Shown here: one piece after another, positions 8,860 to 32,318 of the stretch
How the letters are laid out: every line of letters begins with the position of its first letter
Position numbering within the stretch: position 1 is the stretch's first letter
The notes under the pieces: model-generated
Told to the model about the DNA's origin: nothing
Seen by the model: the letters and a program-made list of their open reading frames with translations, nothing else
Databases searched by the model: none
Program-made: the position numbers and the translations under genes
From: an uncultured Actinomycetota bacterium
GTDB taxonomy: Bacteria > Actinomycetota > Actinomycetes > JAHEKZ01
Direction: 5' to 3'
Assembly (NCBI GenBank): GCA_963829525.1
Contig: CAWHIJ010000003.1
Coordinates: 1,504,001-1,568,000, forward strand
Length of the DNA stretch: 64,000 bases

Positions 8860-8950
8860 GGCCCGACGGTAGGGCGGACCACCGACAACAGGGTCAGCCA
8901 CGCCGACTCGTATTGTTAAATGCTCACCGCCTGCTAATCCTGGAGGACCC

Positions 8951-9193: not shown

Positions 9194-9252
9194 CGGTCTT
9201 GTCGGTGGGTCCCTCTAACGTCTCCGGTACCAACAGATCAGAGGAGACGACC

Positions 9253-9576: not shown

Positions 9577-9649
9577 CGTCGACGCTGGCTCCCGTCGAGT
9601 TCAGACGGTTCGAGAACGGCTTCGAATCCATCGGAGCCACTCTTGGCCT

Positions 9650-9782: not shown

Positions 9783-9794
9783 AGAGCCGCCTTA

Positions 9795-10866: not shown

Positions 10867-10934
10867 CCCCACTACCGGGTAGGACCTTGCGGGGGTGTGC
10901 GCCGCGTGAGGCTTGACTTGCCTACCATCGACGG

Positions 10935-13475: not shown

Positions 13476-13476
13476 G

Positions 13477-14613: not shown

Positions 14614-14620
14614 CCGGCGG

Positions 14621-14800
14621 TCAGCAGTTTCCTGCTCCGTTGGTGACCTGCTGGCATGAGTCCGTGTAGGAGGCGAAGACTGTCTGGCCGAGCACGAAGA
14701 CGATGGATGCCACGACTGCGGCAATCCCCACGACGATGAGGGCGTACTCAACGGCCGAGGCGCCATCGTCGGCGACAGAGTTCCTGTGAATGTCGGTCAT
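14621..14800 (-). CDS. flp: Flp family type IVb pilin (59 aa; absent from the ORF track)
   Basis: Manual translation MTDIHRNSVADDG/ASAVEYALIVVGIAAVVASIVFVLGQTVFASYTDSCQQVTNGAGNC; G/xxxxEY Flp motif; GAGGGGG RBS. Confidence 0.9.
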   Translation of the reverse strand: MTDIHRNSVADDGASAVEYALIVVGIAAVVASIVFVLGQTVFASYTDSCQQVTNGAGNC

Positions 14801-14845
14801 TGCTGTTCCCCCTCGGTTGGCCGGACTGCCCTTGCGGGTGTTGGA

Positions 14846-14883
14846 AGCAGAAGGGCGAGACCATCGGGTCTCGCCCTTCTGCT
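14846..14883. terminator. Perfect 17-bp stem-loop between the two pilin genes
   Basis: agcagaagggcgagacc-atcg-ggtctcgcccttctgct. Confidence 0.8.
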
Positions 14884-14910
14884 ACTCACATGGTGCTCAC
14901 TGCTTTGGAA

Positions 14911-15104
14911 CTAGCAGCCCGAGTTCTGAATGCAGTCGTTGGTGGTGGTGAATGCGTCGAGGATGTTGTCCGCCGAGAGTGAACACGATGGCGGCAATGA
15001 CGGCGGCGATGGCCGCGACAAGCAGGCCGTACTCAACGGCTGACGCACCGTCATCGTTGCGAGAAGTCGAGCAGTGCGCGGACGTACTGGATCTGAGCGG
15101 TCAT
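14911..15104 (-). CDS. flp: Flp family type IVb pilin, probably the major pilin (two apparent +1 frameshifts near 15065 and 14960)
   Basis: Reconstructed MTAQIQYVRALLD.SRNDDG/ASAVEYGLLVAAIAAVIAAIVFTLG.NILDAFTTTNDCIQNSGC; AAAGGGA RBS; strong hairpin downstream. Confidence 0.85.
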
Positions 15105-15323
15105 GAGAGAAAGTCCCTTTCGGTAGCCCTGTGTTCCGTTGTCCCCAGGTGGGGTGTCCGGGCCCCCCTCGGGCTCCGGCTCCATAAGGATGCGGGATTC
15201 CGAGGATGATCAACATCGGCTGGCGGTCCGGCAATCGCTGTCCGATCGGTTGACCCCCAATCGGGTGACGCGCGGTAGCTCTTCCTTGACACCGCGCGCT
15301 GCTCGTGGTCGAGCTGACCGCGT

Positions 15324-15965
15324 CTACGAGGTAGCTTCGGGTGGTTCGATGAGGCCCGCGCGCAACGCCGCCATGATGGCCTGGGCGCGGTTGCCCGCCC
15401 CCAGCTTCTCGTAGAGCTTGGAGATGTGGGTCTTCGTGGTGGAGTCGCTGATGAAGAGGCGTCGCGATATCTGCGCGACCCCCAGGCCCTCCGCCAGCAG
15501 GTCGAGTACCTCCTTCTCGCGGGGTGAGAGCTGCGGGCCGGTTGGAGACATCCGGCGGCGCATCGCGTCGGCCAGGTCGGGTGCGGTGAAGGACCGGGGC
15601 GAGCTCGCCGCGTGACGGGCAGCGATGACGACATCGTCAGCCGGCGCGTCCTTGGGGACGAAAGCCGAGGCTCCGGCATCGAGGGCGCCGAACAGCTGGT
15701 CGTCACCGGCGTACATGGTCAGGACCACGATCCCGAGCTGGGGGTAGGTGCTGCGCGCCTCGCGGGCGGCATCGAGGCCGCTGCCGTCGGGCAGTCGAAC
15801 GTCGAAGATGACCACGTCAGGGCGGTGTTCGGCCAACTGGGTACGCGCCTCAGCCACTGACGCGGCCTCGGCGGCGACCTCGAAGTCAGCCGAGCGCTCG
15901 AAAGCGCGGCGCAGGCCCTCGCGGATCAGCTGATGGTCGTCAACGAGCAGCACGCGAATCGTCAT
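15324..15965 (-). CDS. NarL/LuxR-family response regulator
   Basis: VLLVDDH, DVVIFDVRLPD, FVPK; HTH LSPREKEVL...TTKTHISKLYEKLG. Confidence 0.95.
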   Translation of the reverse strand: MTIRVLLVDDHQLIREGLRRAFERSADFEVAAEAASVAEARTQLAEHRPDVVIFDVRLPDGSGLDAAREARSTYPQLGIVVLTMYAGDDQLFGALDAGASAFVPKDAPADDVVIAARHAASSPRSFTAPDLADAMRRRMSPTGPQLSPREKEVLDLLAEGLGVAQISRRLFISDSTTKTHISKLYEKLGAGNRAQAIMAALRAGLIEPPEATS

Positions 15966-17583
15966 GCTCGTCGTCCCTCCCCCTTGTGCCGATGCCGGTG
16001 TCGAGTGCATCCGGCTCTCGTGGTCGGACCTCCACGCTAGTGCCTCCGCCCGATCGGGTGGTGACGTTCAACGTGCATCCGGCCCGTAAGGCGCGCTCTT
16101 GCATGATTGCCATACCGAAACTGTCTTCACGTGGAGGGAGCAGACCTCGGCCGTCATCCTCGACTCGCAGGTACACGTCGGGGGCATCGATCAGGCACGT
16201 CACCCAGAGATTCTGCGCCCGGCTGTGTCGGCGGGCATTGGCGATGGCCTCCTGGGCAATGCGCAGCAGCTCTGACTCGACGGCCGGTCGAAGTCGGGTA
16301 GGCGACTCAGCGAGCTCGAGATGGATCGCGATTCCGGCGGACTCACCGATGTGGCGGGTGTGGTCGGCGAGCACGGAGGTGAGGCTGGCACCCGGGCCGA
16401 CCTCGCGACGCAGGTCGAAGATCGAGTAGCGCAGCTCACCGATGACCCGCGTCAGCTCCTCGCGAAGGCGAAGCAGGTCTGGCCGAAGGGGCTCTGTGGC
16501 CCGCGCTGCCATGTCGTCGATGAGATACCCCAGGGACGCGACTTCCTGGGCAACTCCGTCGTGGATCTCGCGCGCGAGGCGCTGCCGCTCCTCGGCAGTC
16601 GCAAGGGTGCGAACTTCGTCGAACAGCAGCGCAGCATCGAGGCGTACGGCGTCGGCGTCGGCTACTGATTGCATGTCAGCGAGCTCCCCCTTGGTCCAGG
16701 GCTGATCGCGGCGCTCGACGGCAACCAGACCGACCAAGGTGTCCCTGATGCGGATGGGGACTATGGCCCCGTTCATCGAAGGATCAGTGCCCAACGGACC
16801 ACCGACCGCCCGAACCTCTCGCTTCTCCATCACCTGGTGCCAGACGGTTCCCGCGGCGAGATCGGTGAAAAGCTCTGCATCAACACCTGGACCGAAGGCC
16901 AGCAAGACGGGTTGGCCACCGGTGCGGTAGCCGTAGACCCAACCGCGGGTCATCCCGAATCGCTCGCGGAGGTCGTCCAGGAGAGTGGAGCCGAGCGACA
17001 CCGCATCCAGACCCCCAGAGAGCTCGCGAGAGAGGTCGCGAAGCTGGACGAGCAGGCGCGCCGCGGCAGCGTAGGACTGGTCGTCGTCAGGAAGTTCGGT
17101 CTGAACACGACGGACCCACGCTGCGAGGAGTCCAACCGCAAGGGCGATCAGCGACCACTGAACTACATCGACGATGTACTCCGACCCAGCCAGGCCACCA
17201 ATCCCGGCCGCGCCGGGCGTCAGGAGGCCGAGGATGGTGGCGCCTGATGTGATCACCGCCAAGGTCCAGCCACCGATGAGCCCAGCGGAAAGTGCCGGGG
17301 TGACCAGGTAGGGCAACAGTGAAGGGTCGTACGGGTCCGCGGTCGCGATGATCAGGCCAGCGATCAGGGCCTCGACCACCGGGCGCCAGCGCCGCAGGCT
17401 CCGGGTCTGCACGGGTAGCACCGCAGCGACGGCCAGAACGCTGAGCAGGAGGAGCTGGACGATGAGCTCATCGGCCGTTCCGGTGATGGCCGCCACCGCA
17501 TACATCAGACCCAGGGCAGCCGCCCTGACCCCGATTTCGATGCGCTCATCGTCCAGTTGTCCCAGCACCCGGTCACGTACCAC
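15940..17583 (-). CDS. Membrane sensor histidine kinase (multi-TM, GAF-like, HisKA_3, HATPase)
   Basis: EERQRLAREIHDGVAQ H-box, QEAIANARRHS N-box, VEDDGRG, FGMAIMQERA, GGTSV. Confidence 0.93.
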   Translation of the reverse strand: MVRDRVLGQLDDERIEIGVRAAALGLMYAVAAITGTADELIVQLLLLSVLAVAAVLPVQTRSLRRWRPVVEALIAGLIIATADPYDPSLLPYLVTPALSAGLIGGWTLAVITSGATILGLLTPGAAGIGGLAGSEYIVDVVQWSLIALAVGLLAAWVRRVQTELPDDDQSYAAAARLLVQLRDLSRELSGGLDAVSLGSTLLDDLRERFGMTRGWVYGYRTGGQPVLLAFGPGVDAELFTDLAAGTVWHQVMEKREVRAVGGPLGTDPSMNGAIVPIRIRDTLVGLVAVERRDQPWTKGELADMQSVADADAVRLDAALLFDEVRTLATAEERQRLAREIHDGVAQEVASLGYLIDDMAARATEPLRPDLLRLREELTRVIGELRYSIFDLRREVGPGASLTSVLADHTRHIGESAGIAIHLELAESPTRLRPAVESELLRIAQEAIANARRHSRAQNLWVTCLIDAPDVYLRVEDDGRGLLPPREDSFGMAIMQERALRAGCTLNVTTRSGGGTSVEVRPREPDALDTGIGTRGRDDEHDDSRAAR

Positions 17584-17703
17584 GCCTCCACGGTGTCACA
17601 GCCGGGGGCGAATCGAGTCGATCCACGCGCGCTCATGCCGCCAAACGTGGGCTATCTGGCAAAGTCCCGGCGGTGGAGGCTGCCTTGTGATTCCATTTCA
17701 GAC

Positions 17704-18705
17704 ATGTCTGACCAGTTGTTCTCCCTCAGTGACGTGCTCGATGCCACAGATCGACGCCTGGATGCCGGCCTGACCGCCGCCGCACGCGTGACACCCACCG
17801 GGTTCCATCCCCTCGACACCTATCTCGGTGGAGGCCTGCGTGCGGGCGAGCTCACCCTTCTGGGAGGGCCGCAGGGTCTGGGCAAGACGACGATGGCCCT
17901 GCAGCTTCTTCGCAATGTCGTGGTGAGTGGCGGCACCGGGCTCTACTTCTCGTTCGAGCACGACCCAGCCACGGTGCTCGAACGGTTTGTCGCCATCGAG
18001 GCGGCGGCTCGCTATGGCATCGATGCCGTCCAGCTTCGGCGCATCCGTGAGGCGATGGAGAGCTTGGACGGCCACAGCGGAGGGTTGGCCGAACGGCTGG
18101 CCAACACCCCTGGGGGAGCCGAGGCCGTTGACGCCGTGGGGAAGTACGCACCCCGTCTGCACATTCACCGCGCCAGCGGTGGGGCCACCGACCTCGCCTC
18201 GATCCGGTCGATGGTGGACGCGGTCATCGCCGAGAGTGGCGCTCCACCGGTGGTCGTCGTCGACTACCTGCAGAAGGTTCCTGTGCTTGATCGACCCCTC
18301 TCCGAAGAAGACCGCATCACCACCGTTGCGCAGGGGCTGAAAGACCTCGCCCTGGAACGCGATGTCCCGGTCCTGGCAGTGGTTGCTTCTGACAAGGAAG
18401 GGATCACCAGCGGTCGCAGGATGCGGGTGCACCACCTGCGCGGAGCTGCGGTGTTGGCCTACGAGGCCGACGTTGTACTCGTGATCAACGACAAGTACGA
18501 CGTGGTCGCGCGACACCACCTGGTGTTCGACGTCGGCAATGCCGAGCGCTTCCGCGACTACGTCGTGGTCACGATCGAGAAGAACCGCACGGGAATCGAC
18601 CGGGTCGACCTGGAGTTCCGGAAGCGATTCGAGCAAGGTCGATTCGAGACCGAAGGTCGGCCGGTGGCAGAGCAGCTGGTGGACGAGCGGGTGTTCGTCG
18701 AGTGA
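17704..18705 (+). CDS. Stand-alone DnaB C-terminal-like (RecA-fold) ATPase
   Basis: TGFHPLD, Walker A GPQGLGKT, FSFE, VVVDYLQ, LKDLALERDVPV, YEADVV, IEKNRTG; lacks the DnaB N-terminal domain. Confidence 0.85.
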   Translation: MSDQLFSLSDVLDATDRRLDAGLTAAARVTPTGFHPLDTYLGGGLRAGELTLLGGPQGLGKTTMALQLLRNVVVSGGTGLYFSFEHDPATVLERFVAIEAAARYGIDAVQLRRIREAMESLDGHSGGLAERLANTPGGAEAVDAVGKYAPRLHIHRASGGATDLASIRSMVDAVIAESGAPPVVVVDYLQKVPVLDRPLSEEDRITTVAQGLKDLALERDVPVLAVVASDKEGITSGRRMRVHHLRGAAVLAYEADVVLVINDKYDVVARHHLVFDVGNAERFRDYVVVTIEKNRTGIDRVDLEFRKRFEQGRFETEGRPVAEQLVDERVFVE

Positions 18706-18708
18706 CGC

Positions 18709-19993
18709 TCAGGTCCTTGGGAAGTCTTGGATGTCGATGTGCCTGGCTAACAGCCTGGCCAGCGACCTGACATCGATCGCTCGCTGCAGGAGTGGGCCGG
18801 CCTCCTCGGCCAGGCCAGCCAGCGCGGCCAGGGATGCCTCGCTGAACGGCTCTTTGCGGTCGCGGGACAGCACCAGCACCGCGTGCACCTGAGTGACCGG
18901 AACCGCCATGAGGTGAGTGCGGCTCGCGAGCGGCGCACCGCGAAGATCCTGGCGGGCGACGTCACTCTCTTCGATCAGGATTCCCTTGCCTGCGTTCGCG
19001 ATTCTCTCGACGAGCCACGAATCTGGAGCGAGCTGGAGGCGGTACTCCAGCGGCCGCAGTGCGACTCCGGCCGCGACGCGCCATATTGATCCCGTCCGGG
19101 ACGATAAGTGCTCCGGCATCGGCCATGGTGCGACTGACCGCGTCCTCGACAACGACCGTCGCGGCTTCCTCGAGCGTGTAGAAAAGATGCGCTTCCTCAA
19201 GCAGAGCATGGACGGGATCGGCTGCAGAGAGGCTGTCCCCGGCGACTGTCCGCTTCGCCAGATCAGCAGTGGGTGGCTCGGAAGGGTCGAGGCGCAACGG
19301 GGGCGATTCGTAGCCTTCGCGTTCAGCATTCACAGCGTCGCGACGACGTCGACGCCCCGTGCGTTGAGGGACCGGGAGTGGCGCTGGTTCAGGGAGGGGC
19401 GCGGGTTCGGGGAGTGGTTCTGGTTCGGGGAGTGGTTCTGGTTCGGGGAGTGGTTCTGGTTCGGGGAGTGGAGCTGGTTGGGGGACCGGCGAGGATGGCG
19501 GAGGGGCCGGCAGCGGCGGCAAGACTTCCTGATCGAGCAGGTCGGGGTCCGGAAGTATTGCGAACTCTGGTACCTCGTCGAGCAGACGCTGGTCTGCCGG
19601 TTCGGAGCTTGTCTCGTGCCCGACGGGGCTTGGTGCCATGCGAGGGTGACGGAGGACCTCCGTCACGGCCTTCTGGAGCCGTTGGGGGTCGAGGGGAAGC
19701 GAGAGCAGGTCGACACCGGGAAGGTCCGCGACGTCCGCATCGATCCAGGCCCGATCGTACGCTGCCACCACAACGACGGGAACCCACCGGCCCTGGGCTC
19801 TCAGGTCACCGACGACGCGGCTGGCGACGGAAGGAGATCCGAGATCGAGCACCAGTGCGTCAACACCGACGTCTTCGCCGCTCGCAAGCCACTCGTCCAG
19901 CTCGTTCGCTCGGATCTCGATCAGACTGTGCTTGGTCGCCGACAACGCCATCGACATGGCCGGGTTTCGCGAGACGAGCGCTAGCCGCGCCAT
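18709..19993 (-). CDS. Pseudo-receiver, Pro/Glu linker and GAF-like domain protein (frameshift near 19088)
   Basis: N-terminal alpha/beta pattern with ALVLDL and PVVVVA; PEPEPL repeats; C-terminal ADAGALIVPDG/IWRVAAG...LMAVPV...VLVLSR...PFSEASLAAL pattern of GAF domains. Confidence 0.7.
19386..19475. repeat. 18-nt tandem repeat encoding PEPEPL
   Basis: GGTTCGGGGAGTGGTTCT three times exactly (19404-19457) with degenerate flanking copies. Confidence 0.9.
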
Positions 19994-19996
19994 GGA

Positions 19997-20935
19997 TCAC
20001 GACCCAACGATGATGGACTGGTAGATGCTGATGGCCGCCGGACCGAGTACGACGACGAACAGAGCTGGAAGGATACAGAAGATGAGCGGGAAGAGAATCT
20101 TTACCGGAACCTTCTGCGCTTGTTCCTCGGCGCGCTGGGAGCGTTTGACTCGCATCTCTTTGGCCTGAACTCGCAGAACATTGGCGATCGGGATGCCGAA
20201 CGCGTCCGCCTGAACCATTGACGTGACGAAGCCTTGAAGCTCTTCAACGTCGGTGCGATCCCCGAGCGCGCGCATCGCGTCCGTGCGACCCATCCCGATC
20301 TGCATCTCTTGCAGCACGCGGAAGAACTCATCAGCGAGCGGTCCATCGGTGTTACGCGCAACCTGCGAGACGGCGGCGTCGAACGCGAGCCCTGCCTCAA
20401 CGCTGATGGTCAGCAGGTCGAGCGCGTCCGGCAGGTCCTTGCGGATCTGGTCGCTGCGGTTGTAGGCGCTTTGGTAGAGCACGATGTTGGGCACGTAGAA
20501 GCCCAGAAGCGTGATGCCAGCGGCGATCGCGACGGTGGGCAAGAGCCCCCCGACAAGTGCCCCGAGAGCGATTCCGAGCAGCAGCCCGGCAAACAGGCCG
20601 AGGACCTTGAAAGCGATGACTCGATCCACGTCCCACCCGGGGGGATTACCCGCAAGGTCGAGCTTGCGTGCCATCCGTTCGGACTGGTCGCCGGCCGTGA
20701 ATCGGCGGCCGATAGTCGTCAGTCGACCCATTGCAGGCGACATCACTCGGTCGCCGAACGGCTTGTCGAGCTCGGTCTTCATGTGGTCAGGTGCTGTGTC
20801 TATGGCGCGGACGGCGGCCAAGGACCGATTGACCGCCTGGCGCTCAGACGTGATGGTGCCGATGGTGGTCAGCAGCAGGACGATGGCGAGGAAGACTGCG
20901 GCCAGGCCGAGAAGTAGAACGAGTTGCGACGGCAT
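19997..20935 (-). CDS. tadC: Tad pilus inner-membrane platform protein (T2SSF family)
   Basis: LPDALDLLTISVEAGLAFD, QADAFG, AEEQAQKVPVKILFPLIFCILP. Confidence 0.93.
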   Translation of the reverse strand: MPSQLVLLLGLAAVFLAIVLLLTTIGTITSERQAVNRSLAAVRAIDTAPDHMKTELDKPFGDRVMSPAMGRLTTIGRRFTAGDQSERMARKLDLAGNPPGWDVDRVIAFKVLGLFAGLLLGIALGALVGGLLPTVAIAAGITLLGFYVPNIVLYQSAYNRSDQIRKDLPDALDLLTISVEAGLAFDAAVSQVARNTDGPLADEFFRVLQEMQIGMGRTDAMRALGDRTDVEELQGFVTSMVQADAFGIPIANVLRVQAKEMRVKRSQRAEEQAQKVPVKILFPLIFCILPALFVVVLGPAAISIYQSIIVGS

Positions 20936-20936
20936 G

Positions 20937-22889
20937 TCAGACCTCCACCTTGACGACCTTGCGAAGCCACAATCCGCCGACGGCAAGGAGGAGAAGGCCC
21001 ACGATGACCAGCACCCACCCGGCAGGAGTCGTGACCAGCGGTTGGAGGTACTCCGGGCGAACGAGCACCATGTAGAGCGCGAAAGTCACCGGAAGCATGG
21101 CCAGGATCCAGGCCGAAAGGCGCCCCTCGGCAGACAGCACCTGCACCTGTCGACGGAGTCGCTCACGTTCGCGCAGGGTGGCCGAAACGGTGGAAAGCAC
21201 CTCAGCGAGGTTACCTCCCACTTCACGTTGGATTCTGATTGCCATGACCACCCAGGTGAAGTCGACGCTCTGCATGCGTTGCGCGATCCCATCCAGCGCG
21301 TCCTCGAGCTCAACACCGAGTCGGGTCTCGACAAGAGCGCGGTTGAACTCGGTGGAGATCGGAGGTTTCCCCTCGCGCACCACAGTGTCGATCGCTTGAG
21401 GCATCGAATAACCGGCCGACAGGCTTCCGGCCATCAGCTGGAGGGTGTCAGGTAGCGCGGCAAGGAATGCTTTGCGACGCTGGCCCGCCTTGCGCGAGAG
21501 GTAGAGCCACGGAATGAGGCCACCGAAGAACATGCCGATGATCGTCACGAGGATTCTGCCGCTGGACAGCAAGAAGAGCACGAGGCCGGCGCCGAGGACT
21601 ATCCCCACGTGGATGAGCAGCCACTCTGCTGGTTTGAGTGGCACCGCTGCAGACTCCAGACGACCCCCAAGTCGCGACTCGAAGTCCCGTTGGGCCACTA
21701 CGCGCCCGGCAAGCTCAACCGCGCTTCTGGCGACCTGAGTGTCGCCCAGCACCGTCGTCTCCTGTTCCTTCACCGGCTGTCGCCCGCCCAGGGTGTAGAT
21801 CGACAGGCGACGACGCACGCCGCTGCTCTGCCCTCGCTCCGGGTCGGTGGCTGAGGAAATCGCGACGTAGACGAGGATCAGCAAGGCGATGCCGACGGCG
21901 ATCACGGCGATCCAGATCAGGTTGTCCGAGACCGCCTGGATCGGGCCGGGGTCGGGAGCGGGTGCCGGCTTGATGTCCTCGGGGGCCGGGATGTCGGCGG
22001 GGGCTATTGAGACGAATGCTTGGTCGGTGACGGCGGCCCCATCGACGAGGACGGTGACCGAAATCGTGGCAGAGTTCTTGGTGAAATCCTCGGGCAGGGG
22101 AGCGGTGAGAACTAGGCGGTTGCTGATGCTTGAGGCCGCATCGTTGAATGCGGTAACCAGTTCGGCCGTGTCGGCCGCCTGGTAGACGGTCCCACCGGTG
22201 GCATCGGCGATATCGGTCAGCGCCGCAGTCTGGCCCGAGCTCTCGCCGAACGAAACCACGTCGAAGCGAGCCTCTGCATTCTCGGCCGACTTGGTTGCCT
22301 CTGCCAGCGTGGCCGTACTGCCGCGGTCGGCCCCATCTGAGAGCAGAAGTGCCGAACCTACGTCGGCGCTCTTCAACTCGTCCGCCGCGAGGACGACTGC
22401 GTCGTAGAGCACCGTTTGCTGTGCCGTGGCTAGACCATCGATGGCCTCAACAAGAGCGTTGCGGTCGGTGGTCGGGGCTACCCGCACCTCAGTGGAGCTG
22501 TCGAAAGTGATGAGTCCGATCTCGACTTCCGCAGGTACCGCCTCCACGAACTGCTTGGCTGCGTCCTGTGCACTGGCAAGCTTGCCGTTCTCGTTCATCG
22601 AGTCGCTGGTGTCCATCACCAGATACGTTGTCTGCGTGATGTCGCTGTTGTCACTCGCAGCCTCAACCGAAGGGTCGAGCGGCTGGCCGTCCAAAGACGC
22701 TGACACATTGTTGGTGTCGACGTCGGCCCCGGGAGCTAGGCCGCTGAGGCCGAGGACGACGCTGAGCTCGCCATCGTTTACCTCAACCTGCTCGATCGTG
22801 GAGCTGGTCTCGGCAATCGCCGTTCCGGCGCCCGCAAGGAGGATGAGCGCTGCGATGGCGGCGCCGGTCAGGGTCCGACGCACGCTCAT
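20937..22889 (-). CDS. tadB: TadB with an N-terminal signal peptide and VWA domain
   Basis: Signal peptide ending AIA, MIDAS DTSDS, LYDAV, LLSDG; C-terminal LPDTLQLMAGSLSAG, IQREVGGNLAE, LSAEGRLSA. Confidence 0.9.
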   Translation of the reverse strand: MSVRRTLTGAAIAALILLAGAGTAIAETSSTIEQVEVNDGELSVVLGLSGLAPGADVDTNNVSASLDGQPLDPSVEAASDNSDITQTTYLVMDTSDSMNENGKLASAQDAAKQFVEAVPAEVEIGLITFDSSTEVRVAPTTDRNALVEAIDGLATAQQTVLYDAVVLAADELKSADVGSALLLSDGADRGSTATLAEATKSAENAEARFDVVSFGESSGQTAALTDIADATGGTVYQAADTAELVTAFNDAASSISNRLVLTAPLPEDFTKNSATISVTVLVDGAAVTDQAFVSIAPADIPAPEDIKPAPAPDPGPIQAVSDNLIWIAVIAVGIALLILVYVAISSATDPERGQSSGVRRRLSIYTLGGRQPVKEQETTVLGDTQVARSAVELAGRVVAQRDFESRLGGRLESAAVPLKPAEWLLIHVGIVLGAGLVLFLLSSGRILVTIIGMFFGGLIPWLYLSRKAGQRRKAFLAALPDTLQLMAGSLSAGYSMPQAIDTVVREGKPPISTEFNRALVETRLGVELEDALDGIAQRMQSVDFTWVVMAIRIQREVGGNLAEVLSTVSATLRERERLRRQVQVLSAEGRLSAWILAMLPVTFALYMVLVRPEYLQPLVTTPAGWVLVIVGLLLLAVGGLWLRKVVKVEV

Positions 22890-24277
22890 CGCCCCGTGAA
22901 CTTCTCGAAGGCGAAGAGGGACGGGTCGACGCTGACGCCAGAGGCTGTGAGCTTGTCGAGGAACTTAGGACGAAGCCCGGTTGACTTCAAGGTTCCGATC
23001 GAGCGGCCGTTCTCGTCGAACCCCGCTCCGTGGTCGAAGAGGAAGAGGTCCTGGAGGGTGATCACATCACCTTCCATACCGACCACTTCGGAGACCGCGG
23101 TGATGTGTCGCGTCCCGTCCTTGAACCGGGTCTGCTGGACCACCAGATCGATGGCGCTGGCAACCTGCTCTCGAATCGCGCGCACCGGCAGGTCGACCCC
23201 GGCCATCAGGACCATGGTCTCGATGCGGGCAAGCACGTCACGAGGCGTGTTGGCGTGAACGGTACAGATCGACCCGTCGTGACCGGTGTTCATCGCCTGA
23301 AGCATGTCCAGTGCCGCCGCGTCACGAACTTCACCGACGACGATGCGGTCCGGGCGCATACGCAGGGCGTTTCGCACGAGGTCGCGAACCTTGACCTCAC
23401 CGCGACCTTCGATGTTCGGTGGACGTGCCTCGAGCCGAAGCACGTGGTCTTGGTGCAGCTGCAGCTCTGCGGCGTCCTCGATCGTGACGATCCGCTCGTT
23501 CTCGGGGATGAAAGAAGACAGCACGTTGAGCGTGGTCGTCTTTCCGGCGCCCGTGCCGCCGGAGACCAAGATGTTGAGCTTGCCCCGCACACATGCGTCG
23601 AGGAAGTCCGCAACCGACCGCGTCAGGGTGCCGAAGCCGATCAGGTCCTCGATCCGGTACGGGTCCGCGGCGAACTTTCGGATGGTGAGCATCGAGCCAT
23701 CGAGAGCAAGCGGCGGGACGACTGCGTTGACACGGCTGCCGTCGGGAAGCCGGGCGTCGACCATGGGGCTGGACTCGTCGACGCGACGTCCCACACGCGC
23801 CACGATCTTCTCGATCGTGCGGCGCAGATGGTTCTCGTCGGTGAACTCGCCATCGGTCTTGTAGAGCCGGCCGGCACGCTCAATCCAAATGTCGCTGCTG
23901 CCGTTGACCATGACCTCGGTGATGTCGGGGTCACGCAGGTAGGGCTCGAGAGGGCCATAGCCGAGGATGTCGTCGGCGATCTCTTGGGCGATTCGGGCCC
24001 GGTCGGCTGTGGTGAGAGGTGTGTCATCTTGGCTCAGAACCTCTTGCAGCGCCTGGCGGACCTTCTGCTCCAGCTCGCTCTGCGTCTGCCGTGAGTCGTA
24101 GAGCTTGGGGCCAAGGTTGTCGAGCAGAGCTTGGTGCACTGTGCGCTTGAGGTCGGCAAAGGGGTCGCTGGACTTGCGCTTGGCTAAGGGCTTGCCGATC
24201 AGGGTGTCGTCGGCCTCCACGCGCTCGGTCGGAGCCTTCTGTCGCCGGGCTTCGGCGAGGCGGTCTGCCAGGCTCAT
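22886..24277 (-). CDS. tadA: Tad pilus assembly ATPase TadA/CpaF
   Basis: GGTGAGKTT, TIEDAAEL, LRMRPDRIVVGE, AMNTGHDG. Confidence 0.96.
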   Translation of the reverse strand: MSLADRLAEARRQKAPTERVEADDTLIGKPLAKRKSSDPFADLKRTVHQALLDNLGPKLYDSRQTQSELEQKVRQALQEVLSQDDTPLTTADRARIAQEIADDILGYGPLEPYLRDPDITEVMVNGSSDIWIERAGRLYKTDGEFTDENHLRRTIEKIVARVGRRVDESSPMVDARLPDGSRVNAVVPPLALDGSMLTIRKFAADPYRIEDLIGFGTLTRSVADFLDACVRGKLNILVSGGTGAGKTTTLNVLSSFIPENERIVTIEDAAELQLHQDHVLRLEARPPNIEGRGEVKVRDLVRNALRMRPDRIVVGEVRDAAALDMLQAMNTGHDGSICTVHANTPRDVLARIETMVLMAGVDLPVRAIREQVASAIDLVVQQTRFKDGTRHITAVSEVVGMEGDVITLQDLFLFDHGAGFDENGRSIGTLKSTGLRPKFLDKLTASGVSVDPSLFAFEKFTGR

Positions 24278-25485
24278 GAGGTCTTGGCCTTCCTGCGAAG
24301 GAGACCGCGGCGGTCGCTGCGGAGCTCAGGAGGGATGGAGGAGTCGGTGTGACGCCCAGTGAGTACATGCTTCTCGGCGAACTGACGGATCGCCACGCTG
24401 ACCGGATGCTTGGGGTCGTCGTAGATGATCGGCACGCCCCGGTTGATGGCAGCGGGCACGTCTCGCGAGCTGGGGATCTGGATCGAGATCGGAACGCGCA
24501 GGGTCTTCTCTACCTCGTTGAGGGCCAGTCCGACCTTGGAGTCGGAGCGGTTGAGGACAACGGCCCACTTCTCTCGGGGGAAGTTGATCTCCTCGAGGGT
24601 CTCGAGTGTCAGCTTGAGGTTCTTCAGGGCCGGGATGTCAAGAGTCGCGATCAGTGCGATGAGGTCGCTCTGGTCGAGCGCCTCGAGCACCTGCTCGTCG
24701 AATGCCGGGGGGGTGTCGACGACGACGTAGTCGAACTCTTGGCGGAGGATTGACAGGATCTCTCGTACCAGGTCTGCAGTGATCCCCCTGTTCGACCCGG
24801 GGTCCAGGGGAGCTACCAGTGTTGACAGTCCCGGGATGTTGTTGTGCGGGGTGAGCAGTGACTCGACTGCCGGGGCGTCGAGACCGTCGCCGAGCGAGAC
24901 GGCGTCGGCGATGGTGTGAGCCGGGAAGAGCTGCAGAGCGATCGCGACGTCGCCGAAGGAGAGGTCGAGGTCGACGAGACAGACGCGATTGCGTCCTCCC
25001 TCTGTGAGGGCTACCGCAAGGTTCGTCGACAGCGTGGTCTTGCCGCAGCCACCCTTGGCCGAGAACACCGTGACCAAGATGGCGTGGTCGACCTCGTCCT
25101 CGGGGTGCGCGGCCCCCGGAACTGTCTCACGCATTGACTGGGCGAGCTGCTTCACCCGGGCTACCGCCGAGTTGATTCCGGCGAGGTCGCGCTCTTCGCA
25201 CACTTCTCGAACCCCAGAACGCAGGGCATCGGCCAGCACGGAGGTATCGACCCTGCGACGAACAAGGACTACTCCGAGACTCTGCCGAGAGACCCTCATC
25301 CCAGCGGCAAGCTCAAGCGCGCTCTCGAGGTCGACAGAGGACCCGATCACAACGGCGTCCTCGCCCAAGTGGGTGTCGAGATGGCGCCGGAGTGCGTCGA
25401 GCGTCGGAAGCACCGTGGCATCGGCACCGAGTGCCGAGCGAAGTGACTCCGCGGTGTTGGCGTCGTAATCGAGGATGACAGTCAT
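24274..25485 (-). CDS. cpaE: CpaE/TadZ-like MinD/ParA ATPase with an N-terminal receiver-like domain
   Basis: Deviant Walker A SAKGGCGKTT, LVDLDLSFGD, VVDTP; ATG at 25485 overlaps the cpaB TGA. Confidence 0.88.
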   Translation of the reverse strand: MTVILDYDANTAESLRSALGADATVLPTLDALRRHLDTHLGEDAVVIGSSVDLESALELAAGMRVSRQSLGVVLVRRRVDTSVLADALRSGVREVCEERDLAGINSAVARVKQLAQSMRETVPGAAHPEDEVDHAILVTVFSAKGGCGKTTLSTNLAVALTEGGRNRVCLVDLDLSFGDVAIALQLFPAHTIADAVSLGDGLDAPAVESLLTPHNNIPGLSTLVAPLDPGSNRGITADLVREILSILRQEFDYVVVDTPPAFDEQVLEALDQSDLIALIATLDIPALKNLKLTLETLEEINFPREKWAVVLNRSDSKVGLALNEVEKTLRVPISIQIPSSRDVPAAINRGVPIIYDDPKHPVSVAIRQFAEKHVLTGRHTDSSIPPELRSDRRGLLRRKAKTS

Positions 25486-26226
25486 CAGCGGAACAGGTTC
25501 TGAGTGGTGGTGGCCCCGCCGGTACGCACCTTGGTTCCGTCTCCGAGAAGTGCGAAGTAGAGGGCGCCTCCGGTCTGCGCGTTGATGATCTTCTCGGCCT
25601 CTTGCTGGTCGACCGACAGCGGTGAGGATCGCCAAGGGGATCTCCTCAGTTGTCGAGTCGCCTTGGTCGGTCGTGGTTGTCTGTGTGGTCAGCGTGGTAG
25701 CGCCGACACCGATTACCTCGACCTCGGGCAGCAACGCAGAGGTCACGTCGATGTCGGTGGTCGCTGCTGTCCGGCCAGTGAGAGTTGCGAAGACAGCAAC
25801 TCGTGATCCGGGAACCACGAATCCAGCGACGCGCTCTGGGTCTCCGAGCTGGACCGAGATGGCCAGCTGACCCTTGGGAACCTCGAGTCCAGAGGCCGCC
25901 TGCGCGTTGCCGAACATCTGCGCCAAGATCTGCTGCCCCGGAAAGATTGGTGCGAGCGCAACCTGGTCGGAGATGATCGTGATGTCAGTCAACGCTCCTT
26001 CGGCTGCAGCCGAAGCCGGAACCTCTTGAATCTCGAAGGCTCCGTCCTCAGAAGCAGTGGAGGCTGTTGTCCCTGCGGCCACCTCCTGGGTGGCCACGAG
26101 CACCTGGACCGGAGTGGCGTCGGCCTGCGCACGTTCGTCTGCACCTCGCACGTACACGAAGATGAGAACGGTGCCGAGCGCGGCAACGACCAGAGCGGCA
26201 ATGAGCAAAAGAGTTCTACGTCCCAT
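25485..26226 (-). CDS. cpaB: Flp pilus assembly protein CpaB/RcpC (extra base near 25620)
   Basis: N-terminal TM, SAF segment VLVATQEVAAGT, VAGFVVPGSRV; corrected C-terminus LTLSVDQQEAEKII...LYFALL...QNLFR-stop. Confidence 0.88.
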
Positions 26227-26233
26227 AAGACCT

Positions 26234-26261
26234 CTATCGGAGTGTGACGTGCTCGGTTGAG
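26234..26261 (-). promoter_or_regulatory. Sigma-28 (FliA/WhiG)-like promoter of the cpaB operon
   Basis: CTCAAC-N14-TCCGATAG, 7 nt before the cpaB ATG. Confidence 0.55.
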
Positions 26262-26452
26262 GGAACAAGGCGGACAAATTTCTTGAGCGGGTGCTCCAGC
26301 GGCCATGGTCGGCACTGCCTGCGACACACCATGAGCCCCCGAGATCCCCTGGCGACCGCTGTCGCCAATGGTGCATCGTCCCATGGCACCTTGTCCGTTA
26401 CGCGCAGGGACTCCCGGTCTGTCCCTGGTAGCAAACACCTAGTTATATCGAA

Positions 26453-27985
26453 CTACCCACCAGCAACCGTGAGCACGACCTGGGCGCGCACGTGCGGATG
26501 ACTCCACGCCAAGTTGGTCCGGTACCAGTGCAGAAAGGTGAGGAGCGCGACGGGCAGCGCACCGAGCAGCGGGAACCACCACGGCTGGGCGAGGGCCAGC
26601 CCGGCGAAGTAGAGGCTGGTAAAGGTGGTGACGGTGGCGAACCGCACTGACTGCGCTGCCATGACCCCCGGTGTGGCCGGAGTGTCCCGAGGGCCCTGCA
26701 GGTCTGCCCGATGTGGGTGTCGCAGCGAGGACCGCATGCCGATGGCCACGACGATCAGGACACAGCAGACCGCGGAGGCTATCGCGGCAGAGACTTGCGC
26801 CCCTGTCGACGGAACGGGGGCTCGAAGCGAGCCACCGATCAGTGCTGAGAGAACCGCGGCCATGGCCACCTCGAGGAAGACCAATGACTTTGCGAGGAAT
26901 GCCGATTGCGACCACTCCGGCAGAGTGGCAAGCCACACCGAGCCGGTGGAGTCGAGCGTGAAGGCGTTGATCCCGAAGAGCAATCCAGCGCCAGCTGCGA
27001 TGAGTCCTGGAACCAGGATCAGCGACTGCCAGGTCATCCCGGCCAGGGCTGCAATCATCCCGGGCACGACGACGAGGACGAGTACCCCGCGGCGCAGGGG
27101 GGTGGAGCGCCAGACGCTGGCGTGGTCGACCACAACCAGAGCGAGCAGGCGATTGGACCGCTGGCGTCGCCGAGTCAGTGATCGTGCACTGGCCCGATCG
27201 GAGTGGTCACCAGGCCGTCGTAGGGCCCACGCGGTCACCGCGTCCCCGGCCTTGAGAAGGACGAGTGCAGGGATGGCCAGAGCTGCGAGGACGATCAACC
27301 AGTCCCGGTAGTTGCCTGCGTATCCGTCGAAGGCACCAACCAACACCCTTGTCGTCGGTGAGCGGTCGAGCAACGTGATGACGTTGTCCGTCCAGAAGAT
27401 GAGTAGTCCACCAACAATGACGGCCAGCCCCAAGAGGTTCGTGACCCACCGACCTGGCCGGTTCTGTCGAATCCCCATCACCAGCCAACCGGCAACGTGT
27501 CCGAAGACGGTGGCCAATCCGATGAAGGCAGCCGCCACAACCAGCGCTCTTGCGGTTGGCAACCAGACGAGGTCACCGGCGGCAAATCCGGTGACTACGA
27601 ACAGCGCCACCACGTTGATCATCCAGGCCAAGTTGATCGGCGCGAGGACCAAGGTGCTGCGAAAGACGGTGGCGGGTCTGATGGGGTAGGCCATTAGATG
27701 GTCGGCGGGATAGAGCTCGTACCCGCCGCCAGACACTAGAGGTGCGAGGACCGCCAGCACGATGAACCCGACGTAGAAGGACGGTGTTGCCACCCCAAGG
27801 TTGAGTCTTTGGTCGTCCGGCGCCGTCTGGAGACTGAAGAGTCCTACCAGGACAAGTGCCGGGGGCACGAGGGTGACAAAGGTGATACCCCACCGCAAAG
27901 GTGTGGAGCGGATCATCTTCCAACGGAGCCTGAGGAGCGCCATCAGCTGCGCGTTGGGGGTGAGGGGGCGCGGTGGCGTGCTCAT
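26453..27985 (-). CDS. Multi-TM ABC exporter permease
   Basis: About 12 hydrophobic helices; start overlaps the stop of the upstream ABC ATPase. Confidence 0.75.
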   Translation of the reverse strand: MSTPPRPLTPNAQLMALLRLRWKMIRSTPLRWGITFVTLVPPALVLVGLFSLQTAPDDQRLNLGVATPSFYVGFIVLAVLAPLVSGGGYELYPADHLMAYPIRPATVFRSTLVLAPINLAWMINVVALFVVTGFAAGDLVWLPTARALVVAAAFIGLATVFGHVAGWLVMGIRQNRPGRWVTNLLGLAVIVGGLLIFWTDNVITLLDRSPTTRVLVGAFDGYAGNYRDWLIVLAALAIPALVLLKAGDAVTAWALRRPGDHSDRASARSLTRRRQRSNRLLALVVVDHASVWRSTPLRRGVLVLVVVPGMIAALAGMTWQSLILVPGLIAAGAGLLFGINAFTLDSTGSVWLATLPEWSQSAFLAKSLVFLEVAMAAVLSALIGGSLRAPVPSTGAQVSAAIASAVCCVLIVVAIGMRSSLRHPHRADLQGPRDTPATPGVMAAQSVRFATVTTFTSLYFAGLALAQPWWFPLLGALPVALLTFLHWYRTNLAWSHPHVRAQVVLTVAGG

Positions 27986-28692
27986 GAGGTCAGCAGGGAG
28001 CGGTAGCGCTCTGCACCGGCTCGACCGGCCAACTCGGTCGCCGGGGCCGCGGCGATCACCCGTCCGCGCCTGAGCACGACCGCCTGCTCGCAGGCCTGAA
28101 CGGCGAGCTCGAGGAGGTGGGTCGAGACCATGACCGCCGACCCGGTTGCGCGAAGTTCGGCGATCACTTCCATCGTTGCCTCGACGCCGAGCGGGTCCAC
28201 CCCGTCAAATGGCTCGTCGAGCAGCAGCACCTCGGGTTCATGAAAGGCGGCCAGGATCACCGACATCCTCCGGCCCATGCCATGCGAGAAACCAGCGGTG
28301 ACCCGGTCGGCGACGCCAAGCAGGTCGAAGCGGTCCAGAAGGTCCTCGGCTCTCTTCTCCCAACCAGCGTCCATCGCCCGCATCGTGGCCGAGAGCTGCA
28401 GGTGCTCCCATGGGGTGGCTCGCGGGATGAGTCCTCCGACGTCCGGGCAGTAGCCGACTCGCGCCCGAGCCTGATCAGGGTGGCGCAATGCATCCACGCC
28501 GCCGATCGACACCGAGCCCGTGGTCGGGGGAAGCACGCCGGCCAGCACCTTCAATGTGGTCGACTTTCCCGCGCCGTTGCGTCCGACGAGCGCAAGGGTG
28601 GCACGGGCCGGCACGGTCAGGTCGAAGCCGTCAACGGCAACGACCGGCCCAAAGGCGACCGTGAGTCCCCGGGCTTCCACTACTGCGCTCAT
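27982..28692 (-). CDS. ABC transporter ATP-binding protein
   Basis: GRNGAGKST, FSHGM signature, LLLDEP, STH. Confidence 0.93.
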   Translation of the reverse strand: MSAVVEARGLTVAFGPVVAVDGFDLTVPARATLALVGRNGAGKSTTLKVLAGVLPPTTGSVSIGGVDALRHPDQARARVGYCPDVGGLIPRATPWEHLQLSATMRAMDAGWEKRAEDLLDRFDLLGVADRVTAGFSHGMGRRMSVILAAFHEPEVLLLDEPFDGVDPLGVEATMEVIAELRATGSAVMVSTHLLELAVQACEQAVVLRRGRVIAAAPATELAGRAGAERYRSLLTS

Positions 28693-28769
28693 CGTCCCCC
28701 CTTCGGCGCTTCCAGCCTCCAGGTTGATGGTCCACTCGGTGACTGCGCAACTCGAGAGTGACCGGCTCG

Positions 28770-28797
28770 TCAAGACTTAATGCCGCCATGCCGAGGA
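28770..28797 (+). promoter_or_regulatory. Sigma-28-like promoter
   Basis: TCAAG-N15-GCCGAGGA, 7 nt before GTG 28805. Confidence 0.5.
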
Positions 28798-28804
28798 TCC
28801 TTGC

Positions 28805-29293
28805 GTGAGTACCACTTTGTCTTGCGGCCAGTGCCGGGCTCCGCTGCGTGTGGAGCAGGGCTGGTGCTCGCTCTGTTACGCGACAGTAGAAGCTGAGTTC
28901 GATCCGTTGACCGCGCCCTTGGACGAGGTCGTAGGACGCTTGGAGCCTGTTACGCCAGCTGAGGCTGACCCGATGGCTGAGGCTGACCCGATGGAGGCCG
29001 TCGCCGGCGTGAGCGCTGACTGGGTCAGCACCCCATTGATCGACAGGGCATCGATCGACAGGGGACCAGCGACGTCAGGCGAGACCGCCGATCAGGAACA
29101 GAGTGCCGAGGTCAGTGATCTTGACGTGATGTTCTCGATGCTGGCGGCGGAGCATCGACGGAGTGATCCTGCAGCAGGCATTGCCGAGCGGCTGCAGGAC
29201 AAGTCGACCCGGATTGCGGTGATGGTTGGCGGCATGGCCTTCGTCGGCATCGTGGTGTTCCTCGCGCTCACCGTCTTCGGTGCCTTGGCCTGA
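28805..29293 (+). CDS. Hypothetical protein with N-terminal zinc-ribbon-like motif and C-terminal TM anchor
   Basis: CGQC...WCSLC; acidic linker with an 18-nt duplication (28958-28993); hydrophobic C-terminus. Confidence 0.7.
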   Translation: MSTTLSCGQCRAPLRVEQGWCSLCYATVEAEFDPLTAPLDEVVGRLEPVTPAEADPMAEADPMEAVAGVSADWVSTPLIDRASIDRGPATSGETADQEQSAEVSDLDVMFSMLAAEHRRSDPAAGIAERLQDKSTRIAVMVGGMAFVGIVVFLALTVFGALA

Positions 29294-29342
29294 GGCCGAT
29301 ACGCTCGCCGTATTCACCGTAAACGCACGGCCGGGAGCATTC

Positions 29343-32249: not shown

Positions 32250-32318
32250 TGATCTATCACTCTCCGTAGTTCCGATCATCTGATCGGTTCGACCATGGGG
32301 GATCTGGCTCAGCAAATC

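Follow-up and report, generated by a model that had tools for sequence, protein, structure and literature searches.

Does a Tad pilus locus of an uncultured actinomycete contain a four-gene signaling circuit built around a DnaB-like ATPase, or does an independent ATPase gene lie among the genes that regulate the pilus? The question is raised by positions 14621–29293 of a 64,000-nucleotide (nt) stretch of contig CAWHIJ010000003.1 (the window), where four genes separate tadC, which encodes a platform protein of the pilus machine, from the genes for Flp-type pilins. They encode a protein that joins a pseudo-receiver, a proline-rich linker and a GAF-like domain (REC-GAF), an ATPase that consists of a DnaB_C domain only, a GAF-containing histidine kinase and a NarL/LuxR-type regulator. 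The initial annotation proposed that all four form one circuit that couples pilus state or surface contact to pilin transcription, or the pilus to incoming DNA. Gene neighborhoods in related genomes point to a smaller unit: REC-GAF, kinase and regulator go with the tad genes, and the ATPase, in the reading that we favor with moderate confidence, is a separate gene that is conserved on its own account.

A Tad locus with its own regulatory genes

The stretch is a lineage-typical actinobacterial Tad/Flp pilus locus that carries its own regulatory genes. The genes on which the question turns and those that border them are the following (aa, amino acids).

14621..14800, minus strand: flpA, an intact Flp-type prepilin of 59 aa with a G/ASAVEY motif and one hydrophobic helix
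14911..15104, minus strand: flpB, an Flp-type prepilin with a G/ASAVEY motif and two frame breaks in this assembly
15242..15268, minus strand: candidate operator, the motif TCAHCCGWWYGG twice in tandem between the regulator gene and flp
15324..15965, minus strand: NarL/LuxR-type response regulator (Response_reg 5.6e-24, GerE 2.2e-18; likely start ATG 15965)
15940..17583, minus strand: sensor histidine kinase (GAF 2.2e-5, 25.5 bits against a cutoff of 22.4; HisKA_3 4e-9; HATPase_c 1.6e-8)
17704..18705, plus strand: DnaB_C-only RecA-fold ATPase of 333 aa (DnaB_C 2.6e-21, AAA_25)
18709..19993, minus strand: REC-GAF, a pseudo-receiver/Pro-Glu-rich linker/GAF protein and the last gene of the tad operon (frame analysis, orthologs)
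19997..20935, minus strand: tadC, an inner-membrane platform protein (T2SSF 1.7e-20; three hydrophobic segments)

Read along the minus strand, cpaB, cpaE/tadZ, tadA, a VWA-tadB fusion and tadC are followed by REC-GAF, and past it by the converging ATPase gene, the kinase gene, the regulator gene and the two flp genes. The ATPase gene is the sole plus-strand gene of the locus; all others lie on the minus strand. The gene-level description in the initial annotation is accurate. The REC-GAF ATG (19993) sits 3 nt past the tadC stop codon (19997–19999), the ATPase gene converges on REC-GAF and ends at 18705, 3 nt from the REC-GAF stop at 18709, and Pfam domain matches confirm a GAF histidine kinase and a LuxR-type regulator, in this order, directly upstream of the pilin genes. 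The arrangement, a Tad locus with built-in signaling genes, is conserved across several actinobacterial lineages.

Gene neighborhoods of the ATPase

Genomes were scanned with an alignment of 14 ATPase homologs (A1). The scan matched 599 stretches, 461 of which encode relatives; the best 80 loci were kept, and the window proteins were mapped onto them by tblastn. All loci were retrieved through the ATPase as query, and the 61 that have enough flank on both sides were judged (evaluable loci).

In 15 of the 61 evaluable loci, all from Actinomycetota, the ATPase gene is part of a tad-linked block, with tadC downstream of it and the regulator gene upstream. Thirteen of these carry all four markers; one (L023) lacks a REC-GAF match and one (L020) a kinase match. 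Four short contigs (L003, L004, L008, L010) contain partial, consistent blocks. Recurrence of the same order in the 15 loci and in the partial contigs argues that the arrangement is not due to chance. The remaining 46 loci (29 from Actinomycetota, 17 from Chloroflexota) contain no tadC, REC-GAF, kinase or regulator of ≥50% identity. Of the 19 tad-linked sequences examined, among them the window, 17 have genes encoding the Flp motif, against none of the other loci; these genes hold the same position in most, just past the regulator gene, except in L038, where the gene follows the tad operon. Used as tblastn queries, 57 REC-GAF homologs match 17 loci only, always directly beyond the ATPase.

REC-GAF, kinase, regulator, flp and tad genes form an all-or-none block, and the ATPase occurs with or without it. 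The co-occurrence that the initial annotation expected of all four proteins, to be checked by a neighborhood search, holds for REC-GAF, kinase and regulator, which are tad-linked; the ATPase family, by contrast, is encoded mostly in unrelated contexts. Among 13 more distant tad-linked loci, regulator, tadC and tadB are each kept in 13 and the kinase and the REC-GAF C-terminus in 12, whereas the genes that flank the locus are kept less often: those for a GT4 transferase, an ABC ATPase and a 510-aa membrane protein in five each, and the SRPBCC, ArsA and ROK genes in two each.

Unlinked ATPase genes have other neighbors, housekeeping genes in the six loci described here. In a Nocardioidaceae locus (L031) the gene lies inside the rplK-rplA/rplJ-rplL-rpoB cluster, in Knoellia (L019) between genes for an aldehyde dehydrogenase and ribonuclease/dxr/rseP, in L029 between UvrD-like and XPB-type helicase genes and in L009 beside fur and a gamma-glutamyltranspeptidase gene. 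In two Chloroflexota loci (L073, L055) it forms part of a row that runs FtsH, M20 peptidase, ATPase, pyrophosphatase.

Three loci show local peculiarities. In the Nocardioidaceae locus (8519–12258) the ATPase gene is accompanied by a gene for an F420H2-dependent quinone reductase, and the two stand between rplJ/rplL and rplA/rplK, within the otherwise highly conserved nusG-rplKA-rplJL-rpoB region. Unlinked L014 (10001–12450) holds two tandem ATPase-family genes (57% and 50% identity to the window protein) with a short fragment ahead of them, a local duplication. In tad-linked L023, which has no REC-GAF, the ATPase gene abuts tadC, with 27 nt between the tblastn matches (10996–11023).

REC-GAF is a block-specific accessory protein

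REC-GAF is a block-specific, uncharacterized accessory protein and a new part of this type of Tad locus. Its features were read from an alignment of eight intact orthologs of 329–508 aa (A3); in all eight the gene starts within about 3–25 nt of tadC. The N-terminal ~120 residues match receiver structures (PhoP, 1mvo, 1.5e-7), but the catalytic residues of a receiver are missing: the acidic pair after strand 1 is absent, the Asp of strand 3 is Gly in two of the eight orthologs (L015, L024) and the Lys of strand 5 is replaced by a hydrophobic residue. The domain is therefore a pseudo-receiver. A variable, proline-rich linker connects it to the C-terminal ~170 residues, which match GAF_2 in six of the eight orthologs (best 6.7e-8), mostly below the gathering cutoff.

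A word-based search returned 57 relatives, named only 'GAF domain-containing', 'CheY-like' or 'hypothetical'; for those from cultured Kineosporia and Spongisporangium, the alignment is confined to the GAF part. An exhaustive profile search yielded 2525, 392 and 245 representatives at E ≤ 1e-3, 1e-10 and 1e-30, respectively, many of them full-length. The 245 representative clusters at the strictest threshold bear no functional name in any source. Eighteen longer relatives carry no informative extra domains (0–1 Pfam match each). One relative (P0392, 626 aa) has a phage-capsid Pfam domain (1.8e-10) ahead of its GAF-like C-terminus; it is probably a mis-called open reading frame (ORF) and may otherwise be an odd fusion. 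Specific kinship between the GAF domains of REC-GAF and the kinase was considered and rejected (E = 0.78), as was a relation of the pseudo-receiver to CpaE, to which no similarity was detected.

Kinase, regulator and a motif ahead of the pilin genes

The kinase is predicted to have about four to five N-terminal membrane helices (hydropathy segments between residues 15 and 155) and a cytoplasmic GAF domain, followed by the H-box EIHD at residue 339 and the G1 box at 476. The receiver of the regulator reads as canonical, with the DD pair, phospho-Asp, Thr and Lys in place. Both proteins are encoded within the tad locus, a position kept in 15 of the 61 evaluable loci.

A spacer of 220 nt separates the regulator gene from flpB. 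It holds the two copies of TCAHCCGWWYGG at 15242–15253 and 15257–15268, 15 nt apart, which are the sole exact matches in the window. The regulator-flp spacers of tad-linked loci have the motif in common. By matching of IUPAC patterns, an exact copy is present in 8 of the 80 loci, seven of them tad-linked, and lies beside flp where positions were compared (L002, L023, L030, L001). With one mismatch allowed, the window contains 16 copies against 6.4 expected, a modest enrichment. The spacer between the kinase and ATPase genes contains no copy, even at one mismatch. One further copy accompanies the detached pseudopilin genes of the window.

32276..32287, plus strand: one-mismatch copy of the motif within a near-palindrome, ~105 nt upstream of the tadE-like gene

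Such a conserved, repeated motif between the regulator gene and the pilin genes is consistent with control of their transcription, and the regulator would be the protein that binds it.

The ATPase is probably the same protein inside and outside tad loci

The ATPase aligns with DnaB_C from end to end (profile positions 3–251 of 255) and lacks the N-terminal domain of DnaB. Its start was placed at ATG 17704 and not at TTG 17557 because close homologs are all 333–336 aa long. When the ATPase profile is aligned to the DnaB structures 2vye and 2r6a, it contains a linker helix and motifs that we take to be Walker A, the catalytic-Glu motif, the DYLQ Walker B and H4; these columns are invariant in alignments A1 and A4. 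The protein is probably a hexameric ring ATPase with DnaB-type nucleotide- and DNA-binding motifs and may act on single-stranded DNA.

Named families of the superfamily fit less well. The protein is not a replicative DnaB (TIGR00665, 72 bits against a cutoff of 385.25; DnaB_C only), a KaiC (Pfam KaiC covers positions 2–70 of 231; NF006799, 30.4 against 408), a FlaH (ArlH; NF004723, 18.1 bits against 194) or a RadA/Sms (TIGR00416, 31.5 bits against 403.05, over the P-loop region only). Models of KaiC, RecA, RadA and FlaH all match it over the P-loop region only. At least 2443 relatives score at E ≤ 0.001 among 8000 candidates scored, and databases name the family only 'DnaB-like helicase C-terminal domain-containing protein' or 'replicative DNA helicase'. 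A stored homolog (P0114) leads to clusters that are all DnaB_C-only, some of them from phages.

The ATPase gene has a -10-like element at about 17687–17692 (region 17680–17703). Among actinobacterial loci that have an ATPase start codon at the predicted place, 13 of 16 linked and 20 of 29 unlinked ones show a hexamer of the form T[GT][CG][CA]AT, often after TGn, whose end falls 4–9 nt short of that codon; the background frequency is 0.00145. Its conservation before the start points to a promoter of the ATPase's own and to a transcript that is probably leaderless or near-leaderless. Chloroflexota homologs (L055, L060-L071, L073-L078, L080) have no start codon at the actinobacterial position; the ~60 nt before the ATPase match are similar between these loci, and the ORFs called in L073 and L055 begin before that position (371 and 508 aa), which suggests a short N-terminal extension.

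Linked and unlinked actinobacterial ATPases differ at one group-specific alignment column in each direction. Linked copies share a mean identity of 0.584 among themselves and unlinked copies one of 0.559; between the two groups it is 0.529. Shared residues and a shared -10-like element favor one protein with one function in both contexts. An integral fourth member, as the initial annotation had it, is at odds with these observations and with the lack of the flp-spacer motif between the kinase and ATPase genes. In a quick tree of the ATPases, the labels linked and unlinked change four times, against 16.8 changes for shuffled labels.

Favored explanation and alternatives

We read the stretch, with the moderate confidence stated above, as a Tad locus with its own kinase/regulator pair and a REC-GAF adaptor, beside which the ATPase is a separate, independently conserved gene. 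Kinase and regulator, transcribed directly ahead of flp, would most likely switch pilin transcription through the repeated operator-like motif, and perhaps pseudopilin transcription as well, with the logic of PprAB in the tad locus of Pseudomonas aeruginosa. Translational coupling of REC-GAF to tadC suggests that the protein is produced together with the assembly platform. It would most likely be a ligand-responsive adaptor that acts on the kinase or on the cytoplasmic side of the machine, a role modeled on pseudo-receivers such as FrzS that steer type IV pili. The ATPase gene appears to be transcribed alone. In one set of lineages it is trapped between two halves of the locus that are selected together; in most others it is placed elsewhere. 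A gene between these halves, flp with the regulators on one side and the tad operon on the other, would be hard to remove by rearrangement and could therefore be held there neutrally; most likely, the ATPase is such an independent gene held in place by position. Since it is separately conserved and lies elsewhere in most lineages, its presence here says little in favor of a four-gene circuit. Gene content, domain layout, the conservation of the block with its all-or-none pattern and the motif positions are observations. The ligands of the GAF domains, the partners of the pseudo-receiver, the substrate of the ATPase and the protein that binds the motif are all things that we infer from the genes.

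Several points weigh against this reading. An approximately unbiased (AU) test does not reject a tree in which all 18 tad-linked ATPase rows are together (p-AU 0.517), and this constrained tree is better by 0.91 log-likelihood units; the tad-linked ATPases could be a distinct subfamily. As such a tree is not rejected, one change of context may suffice, with either state ancestral. Motilibacteraceae (L038, L042) have the kinase and regulator genes in inverted orientation and carry the SRPBCC-ArsA-ROK block on the opposite side, yet the ATPase gene is still found beside REC-GAF, its orientation unchanged. The stops of the ATPase and REC-GAF genes are 1–3 nt apart in five of nine loci examined, so that their transcripts must overlap. 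Retrieval through the ATPase cannot show tad blocks that lack it, which is the main gap of the scan, and a tad/REC-GAF block elsewhere in a genome with an unlinked ATPase lies outside its view. Finally, the link between motif and regulator and the adaptor role of REC-GAF are themselves deduced from the arrangement of the genes. Taken together, a functional link of the ATPase to the pilus is a minority possibility that deserves to be kept in mind.

Among the forms that such a link could take, the circuit proposed by the initial annotation survives best, although we consider it unlikely. REC-GAF, ATPase, kinase and regulator would then be one unit, in which a ring ATPase serves as a KaiC/FlaH-like hub that is read by REC-GAF and relayed to kinase and regulator to set pilin transcription. 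The position of the ATPase between kinase and REC-GAF in all 17 loci with a tadC match, the rearranged Motilibacteraceae included, fits this proposal, as do the tail-to-tail contact with REC-GAF, the divergent spacer shared with the kinase gene (87–335 nt, aligning poorly beyond close relatives) and a single clade of tad-linked ATPases that is not rejected. Two precedents lend it plausibility: in cyanobacteria, the pseudo-receiver of KaiA modulates KaiC (PMC12632262), and in the archaeal Epd pilus FlaH takes the place that TadZ occupies in Tad (PMC6668835). The part of the proposal that stands is the association of REC-GAF, kinase and regulator with tad genes alone among the 80 loci, together with the motif near flp. 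The ATPase does not fit: it is unlinked in 46 of the 61 evaluable loci, without a partner gene within 10 kb, the tad-linked copies show hardly any group-specific residues, and the promoter-like element is the same in both contexts. Moreover, KaiC and FlaH models match only its P-loop region whereas DnaB_C matches end to end, and its strand is opposite to that of all other genes of the locus.

It is still less probable that the ATPase and the abutting REC-GAF form an accessory motor-and-modulator pair of the actinobacterial Tad machine, the ATPase being a bacterial counterpart of the FlaH/KaiC-type secondary ATPase of archaeal type IV filaments that would gate the pilus or pull single-stranded DNA in Tad-dependent transformation. 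The pseudo-receiver of REC-GAF could, by analogy, act on the ATPase as that of KaiA does on KaiC, and the unlinked copies of Nocardioidaceae, Intrasporangiaceae and Chloroflexota could still serve a pilus encoded elsewhere.

A role in DNA uptake is very unlikely. The Tad pilus would serve natural transformation as in Micrococcus luteus, with the DnaB-type ring ATPase translocating or processing the incoming strand. The ATPase keeps the DnaB-type Walker A, catalytic Glu, DYLQ Walker B, H4 and linker helix, and an unlinked copy (L029) has helicase genes on both sides. RadA, a DnaB-type helicase, acts in transformation (PMC5512693), and transformation of M. luteus needs its tad clusters and is affected by an FtsK-like gene near tad-1 (PMC8467076). 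However, no comEA/comEC or other competence genes were found among the window ORFs scanned, most members of the ATPase family are encoded in non-pilus contexts, and a role on DNA would suit these contexts equally well without any link to a pilus.

Pure synteny, in which kinase, regulator and REC-GAF control something else and stand beside tad through block inheritance of the region, is the least likely account: the tad-linked loci all come from related Actinomycetes, some flanks (GT4, ABC) are also kept in ~5 of the 13 distant loci and control of the pilus by the three proteins is a deduction, but in the 61 evaluable loci the three genes go with tad in an all-or-none manner and are kept in 12–13 of the 13 distant loci against 2–5 for flanks, REC-GAF starts within a few nt of tadC, a conserved motif lies between the regulator gene and flp, and locus-embedded two-component systems control tad genes in two studied bacteria (PMC3510237, PMC3767616).

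Under the favored reading of a self-regulated Tad locus beside an independent ATPase gene, this type of locus offers a compact, testable set: a kinase/regulator pair ahead of the pilin genes, a conserved candidate operator and the REC-GAF family. Tad pili drive adhesion and biofilm formation and, in at least one actinomycete, also DNA uptake, and their control in monoderm high-GC bacteria has barely been studied. If the GAF domains bind a small molecule, the locus would provide a simple model for the switching of a Gram-positive Tad machine. The ATPase supplies a caution: it is conserved in place while its family lies mostly elsewhere, and position alone overstated its role.

Other genes of the locus and its flanks

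The remaining features of the pilus locus and of the genes that adjoin it are listed below.

14839..14890, minus strand: RNA hairpin between flpB and flpA (24-nt arms, 88% complementary)
20937..22889, minus strand: fusion of signal peptide, VWA domain and TadB platform protein (VWA_2 1.3e-14, T2SSF 3.8e-20)
22886..24277, minus strand: tadA/cpaF secretion ATPase (T2SSE 6.3e-66)
24274..25485, minus strand: cpaE/tadZ, a ParA/MinD-like ATPase with an N-terminal extension of ~135 aa (ParA/CbiA/AAA_31 matches)
25483..26226, minus strand: cpaB/rcpC-like gene with a frame break near 25616 (RcpC 2.5e-11; start ATG 26226)
26453-27985, minus strand: membrane protein of 510 aa and ~11 helices (11 hydrophobic segments, no Pfam match)
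27982-28773, minus strand: ABC ATPase upstream of the tad operon (ABC_tran 7.5e-26)
32391..34278, plus strand: TadE-like and TadG-like pseudopilin genes and a 293-aa ORF, each with an N-terminal hydrophobic helix; a detached Tad part

TadA, TadB and TadC, TadZ/CpaE with CpaB/RcpC, and TadE/G-type pseudopilins are all encoded, as expected of a Tad system. Both flp products have the G-ASAVEY processing motif and a single hydrophobic segment, as Flp prepilins do, and the flp ortholog of L038 has an Flp_Fap Pfam match. The likely start of tadC is ATG 20935, and that of cpaE is ATG 25485. The VWA-TadB protein (650 aa, N-terminal signal peptide) corresponds to one tblastn segment in six other loci (L001, L002, L005, L023, L024, L035), which argues that the fusion is genuine; it places the VWA domain outside the membrane, on the pilus platform. 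The cpaE gene stands alone in L024 and L005, with 400–402 aa, its ParA part beginning at about residue 137. The pseudopilin genes match TadE (32391–32909, 1.6e-14) and the TadE/G-like Tad model (32900–33430, 2.6e-10); a further TadG-like gene lies on the minus strand at 34501–35589 (Tad, 2.7e-9). No Peptidase_A24 (TadV/CpaA) was found among the window ORFs scanned or among 25 of the 53 called ORFs of L024, L038 and L005, and a prepilin peptidase gene may lie elsewhere in the genome.

The inter-flp hairpin folds at -57.6 kcal/mol (z = -6.25), and none of 200 shuffled sequences folds as well; it probably serves as a terminator or attenuator behind the first pilin gene. No known RNA family or riboswitch was found in 13000–36000, where the best matches were at chance level and fell on this hairpin. 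Sigma-70-type promoter matches were absent from 14400–29400.

The genes for the ABC ATPase and the ~11-helix protein overlap at stop and start just upstream of cpaB. Close relatives and 5 of the 13 more distant tad-linked loci have this pair next to the tad operon, and its membership in the pilus system is doubtful. A relation to anti-phage defense was rejected, as PADLOC gave only weak generic matches to P-loop and helix-turn-helix models (for example, mad8, 9.1e-5, for the ATPase).

On one side of the locus (740–14613) lie ctaE-qcrCAB, trpD and genes for an NlpC/P60 protein, an M48 peptidase and a GT4 transferase; on the other (29226–54110), those for an SRPBCC protein, an ArsA-like ATPase, DUF5304 and a ROK kinase are followed by DAHP synthase, a PASTA kinase and an Rv2175c-like protein. 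These flanks resemble what we take to be the mycobacterial Rv2172-Rv2200 core region, so that the tad block looks inserted into a conserved core.

Frame breaks in the assembly

Three genes of the locus are interrupted in this assembly. REC-GAF has one additional base near 19090 relative to the intact orthologs of L001 and L002. Relative to the same two loci, flpB has two frame breaks: the leader that starts at ATG 15104 runs into a stop, and the Flp motif and the C-terminus are in other frames, while the L001 and L002 orthologs are continuous through the leader. The third break concerns cpaB. A 700-aa ORF that joins RcpC and ParA (24274–26376) was rejected as a real fusion, since it results from one additional base near 25616 relative to L001, L002 and L023; cpaB and cpaE are separate in L001, L002, L024, L005 and L038, where cpaB has its own stop and cpaE starts directly after it.

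Housekeeping genes of the window are split as well: qcrA (2413–3180 and 3200–3415), the cytochrome c gene qcrC (3669–3929 and 3952–4230), ctaE/COX3 (4253–4492 and 4467–4778), trpD (5693–6388 holds only half of the Glycos_transf_3 domain) and a polyprenyl synthase gene (within 57931–58440, profile positions 143–238 of 251 only). Because essential genes are likewise broken, real pseudogenes are an unlikely explanation for REC-GAF and flpB, and the breaks in REC-GAF, flpB and cpaB are most likely sequencing or assembly errors. The many single-base errors of the assembly create both false fusions and false pseudogenes.

Comparison with known systems

The embedded two-component system, which the initial annotation took to be undescribed, has precedents. 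PprAB, a NarL/LuxR-type two-component system in the tad locus of P. aeruginosa, activates the pilus genes (PMC3510237), and a tad-locus two-component system is also described in Pectobacterium (PMC3767616). As in these bacteria, a kinase and a NarL/LuxR regulator are encoded in or beside tad, here as a HisKA_3 kinase and a REC+GerE regulator directly upstream of flp. Unlike PprAB, the present pair belongs to a monoderm actinomycete, its kinase combines a multi-helix membrane domain with GAF, and its regulatory role is deduced from genes alone. Orthology to PprAB is not established, the best NCBIfam regulator and kinase models scoring far below their cutoffs. To our knowledge, the PprAB locus has neither a REC-GAF gene nor an inserted ATPase gene.

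The locus also resembles the actinobacterial 'helicase/secretion neighborhood', a Tad-like locus whose models match TadA (TIGR03819, TadA-like), CpaE (TIGR03815, Ssd/CpaE-like) and the TadG-like protein (TIGR03816, Rv3654c-type TadE-like), each below its cutoff (346.7 against 373.15, 59.7 against 154.45 and 26.2 against 50.95 bits, respectively). The short names heli_sec_ATPase and tadE_like_DECH record a conserved helicase neighbor of that locus. That helicase is a DEAH-box enzyme of superfamily 2 and does not have the DnaB fold; no DEAD/DEAH helicase was found among the window ORFs scanned.

M. luteus encodes a PAS kinase together with cpaB and cpaE in one operon; its transformation requires the tad clusters and is influenced by an FtsK-like (FtsK/SpoIIIE) ATPase gene beside tad-1 (PMC8467076). 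Common to both organisms are an actinobacterial Flp/Tad system, a sensor kinase gene and a nearby ATPase of a DNA-handling family. The sensor, however, is GAF here and PAS there, the ATPase family and the layout differ, and transformation is the function established for M. luteus.

With an accessory ATPase of the RecA superfamily and a TadA-like motor in one type IV filament locus, the stretch recalls the archaellum and the archaeal Epd pilus. The latter, a sister of Tad, encodes the ATPase FlaH in the place of TadZ, and the Tad system is inferred to have arisen from the archaeal lineage (PMC6668835). Unlike FlaH/ArlH, the window ATPase matches DnaB_C from end to end and KaiC/FlaH at the P-loop only, lies on the opposite strand with a promoter-like element of its own, and is encoded mostly outside pilus loci.

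For the N-terminal domain of REC-GAF, the closest parallels are FrzS, whose pseudo-receiver steers type IV pili in Myxococcus (PMC1974792, PMC9811614, PMC12632262), and the atypical receiver of TadZ; all share a receiver fold without phospho-acceptor chemistry, which in the known cases is a module for protein binding that positions or activates a pilus machine. The pseudo-receiver of cyanobacterial KaiA, which modulates KaiC (PMC12632262), is the precedent for action on an ATPase. In REC-GAF the C-terminal partner is GAF, unlike the coiled coil or ParA ATPase of FrzS and TadZ. A search that left most subscription journals outside found no account of a DnaB_C-only ATPase or a pseudo-receiver/GAF gene in any Tad locus, and the papers it yielded on Tad pili and KaiC all concern archaella. 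The embedded two-component system is thus a known element of tad loci; the REC-GAF accessory protein is new.

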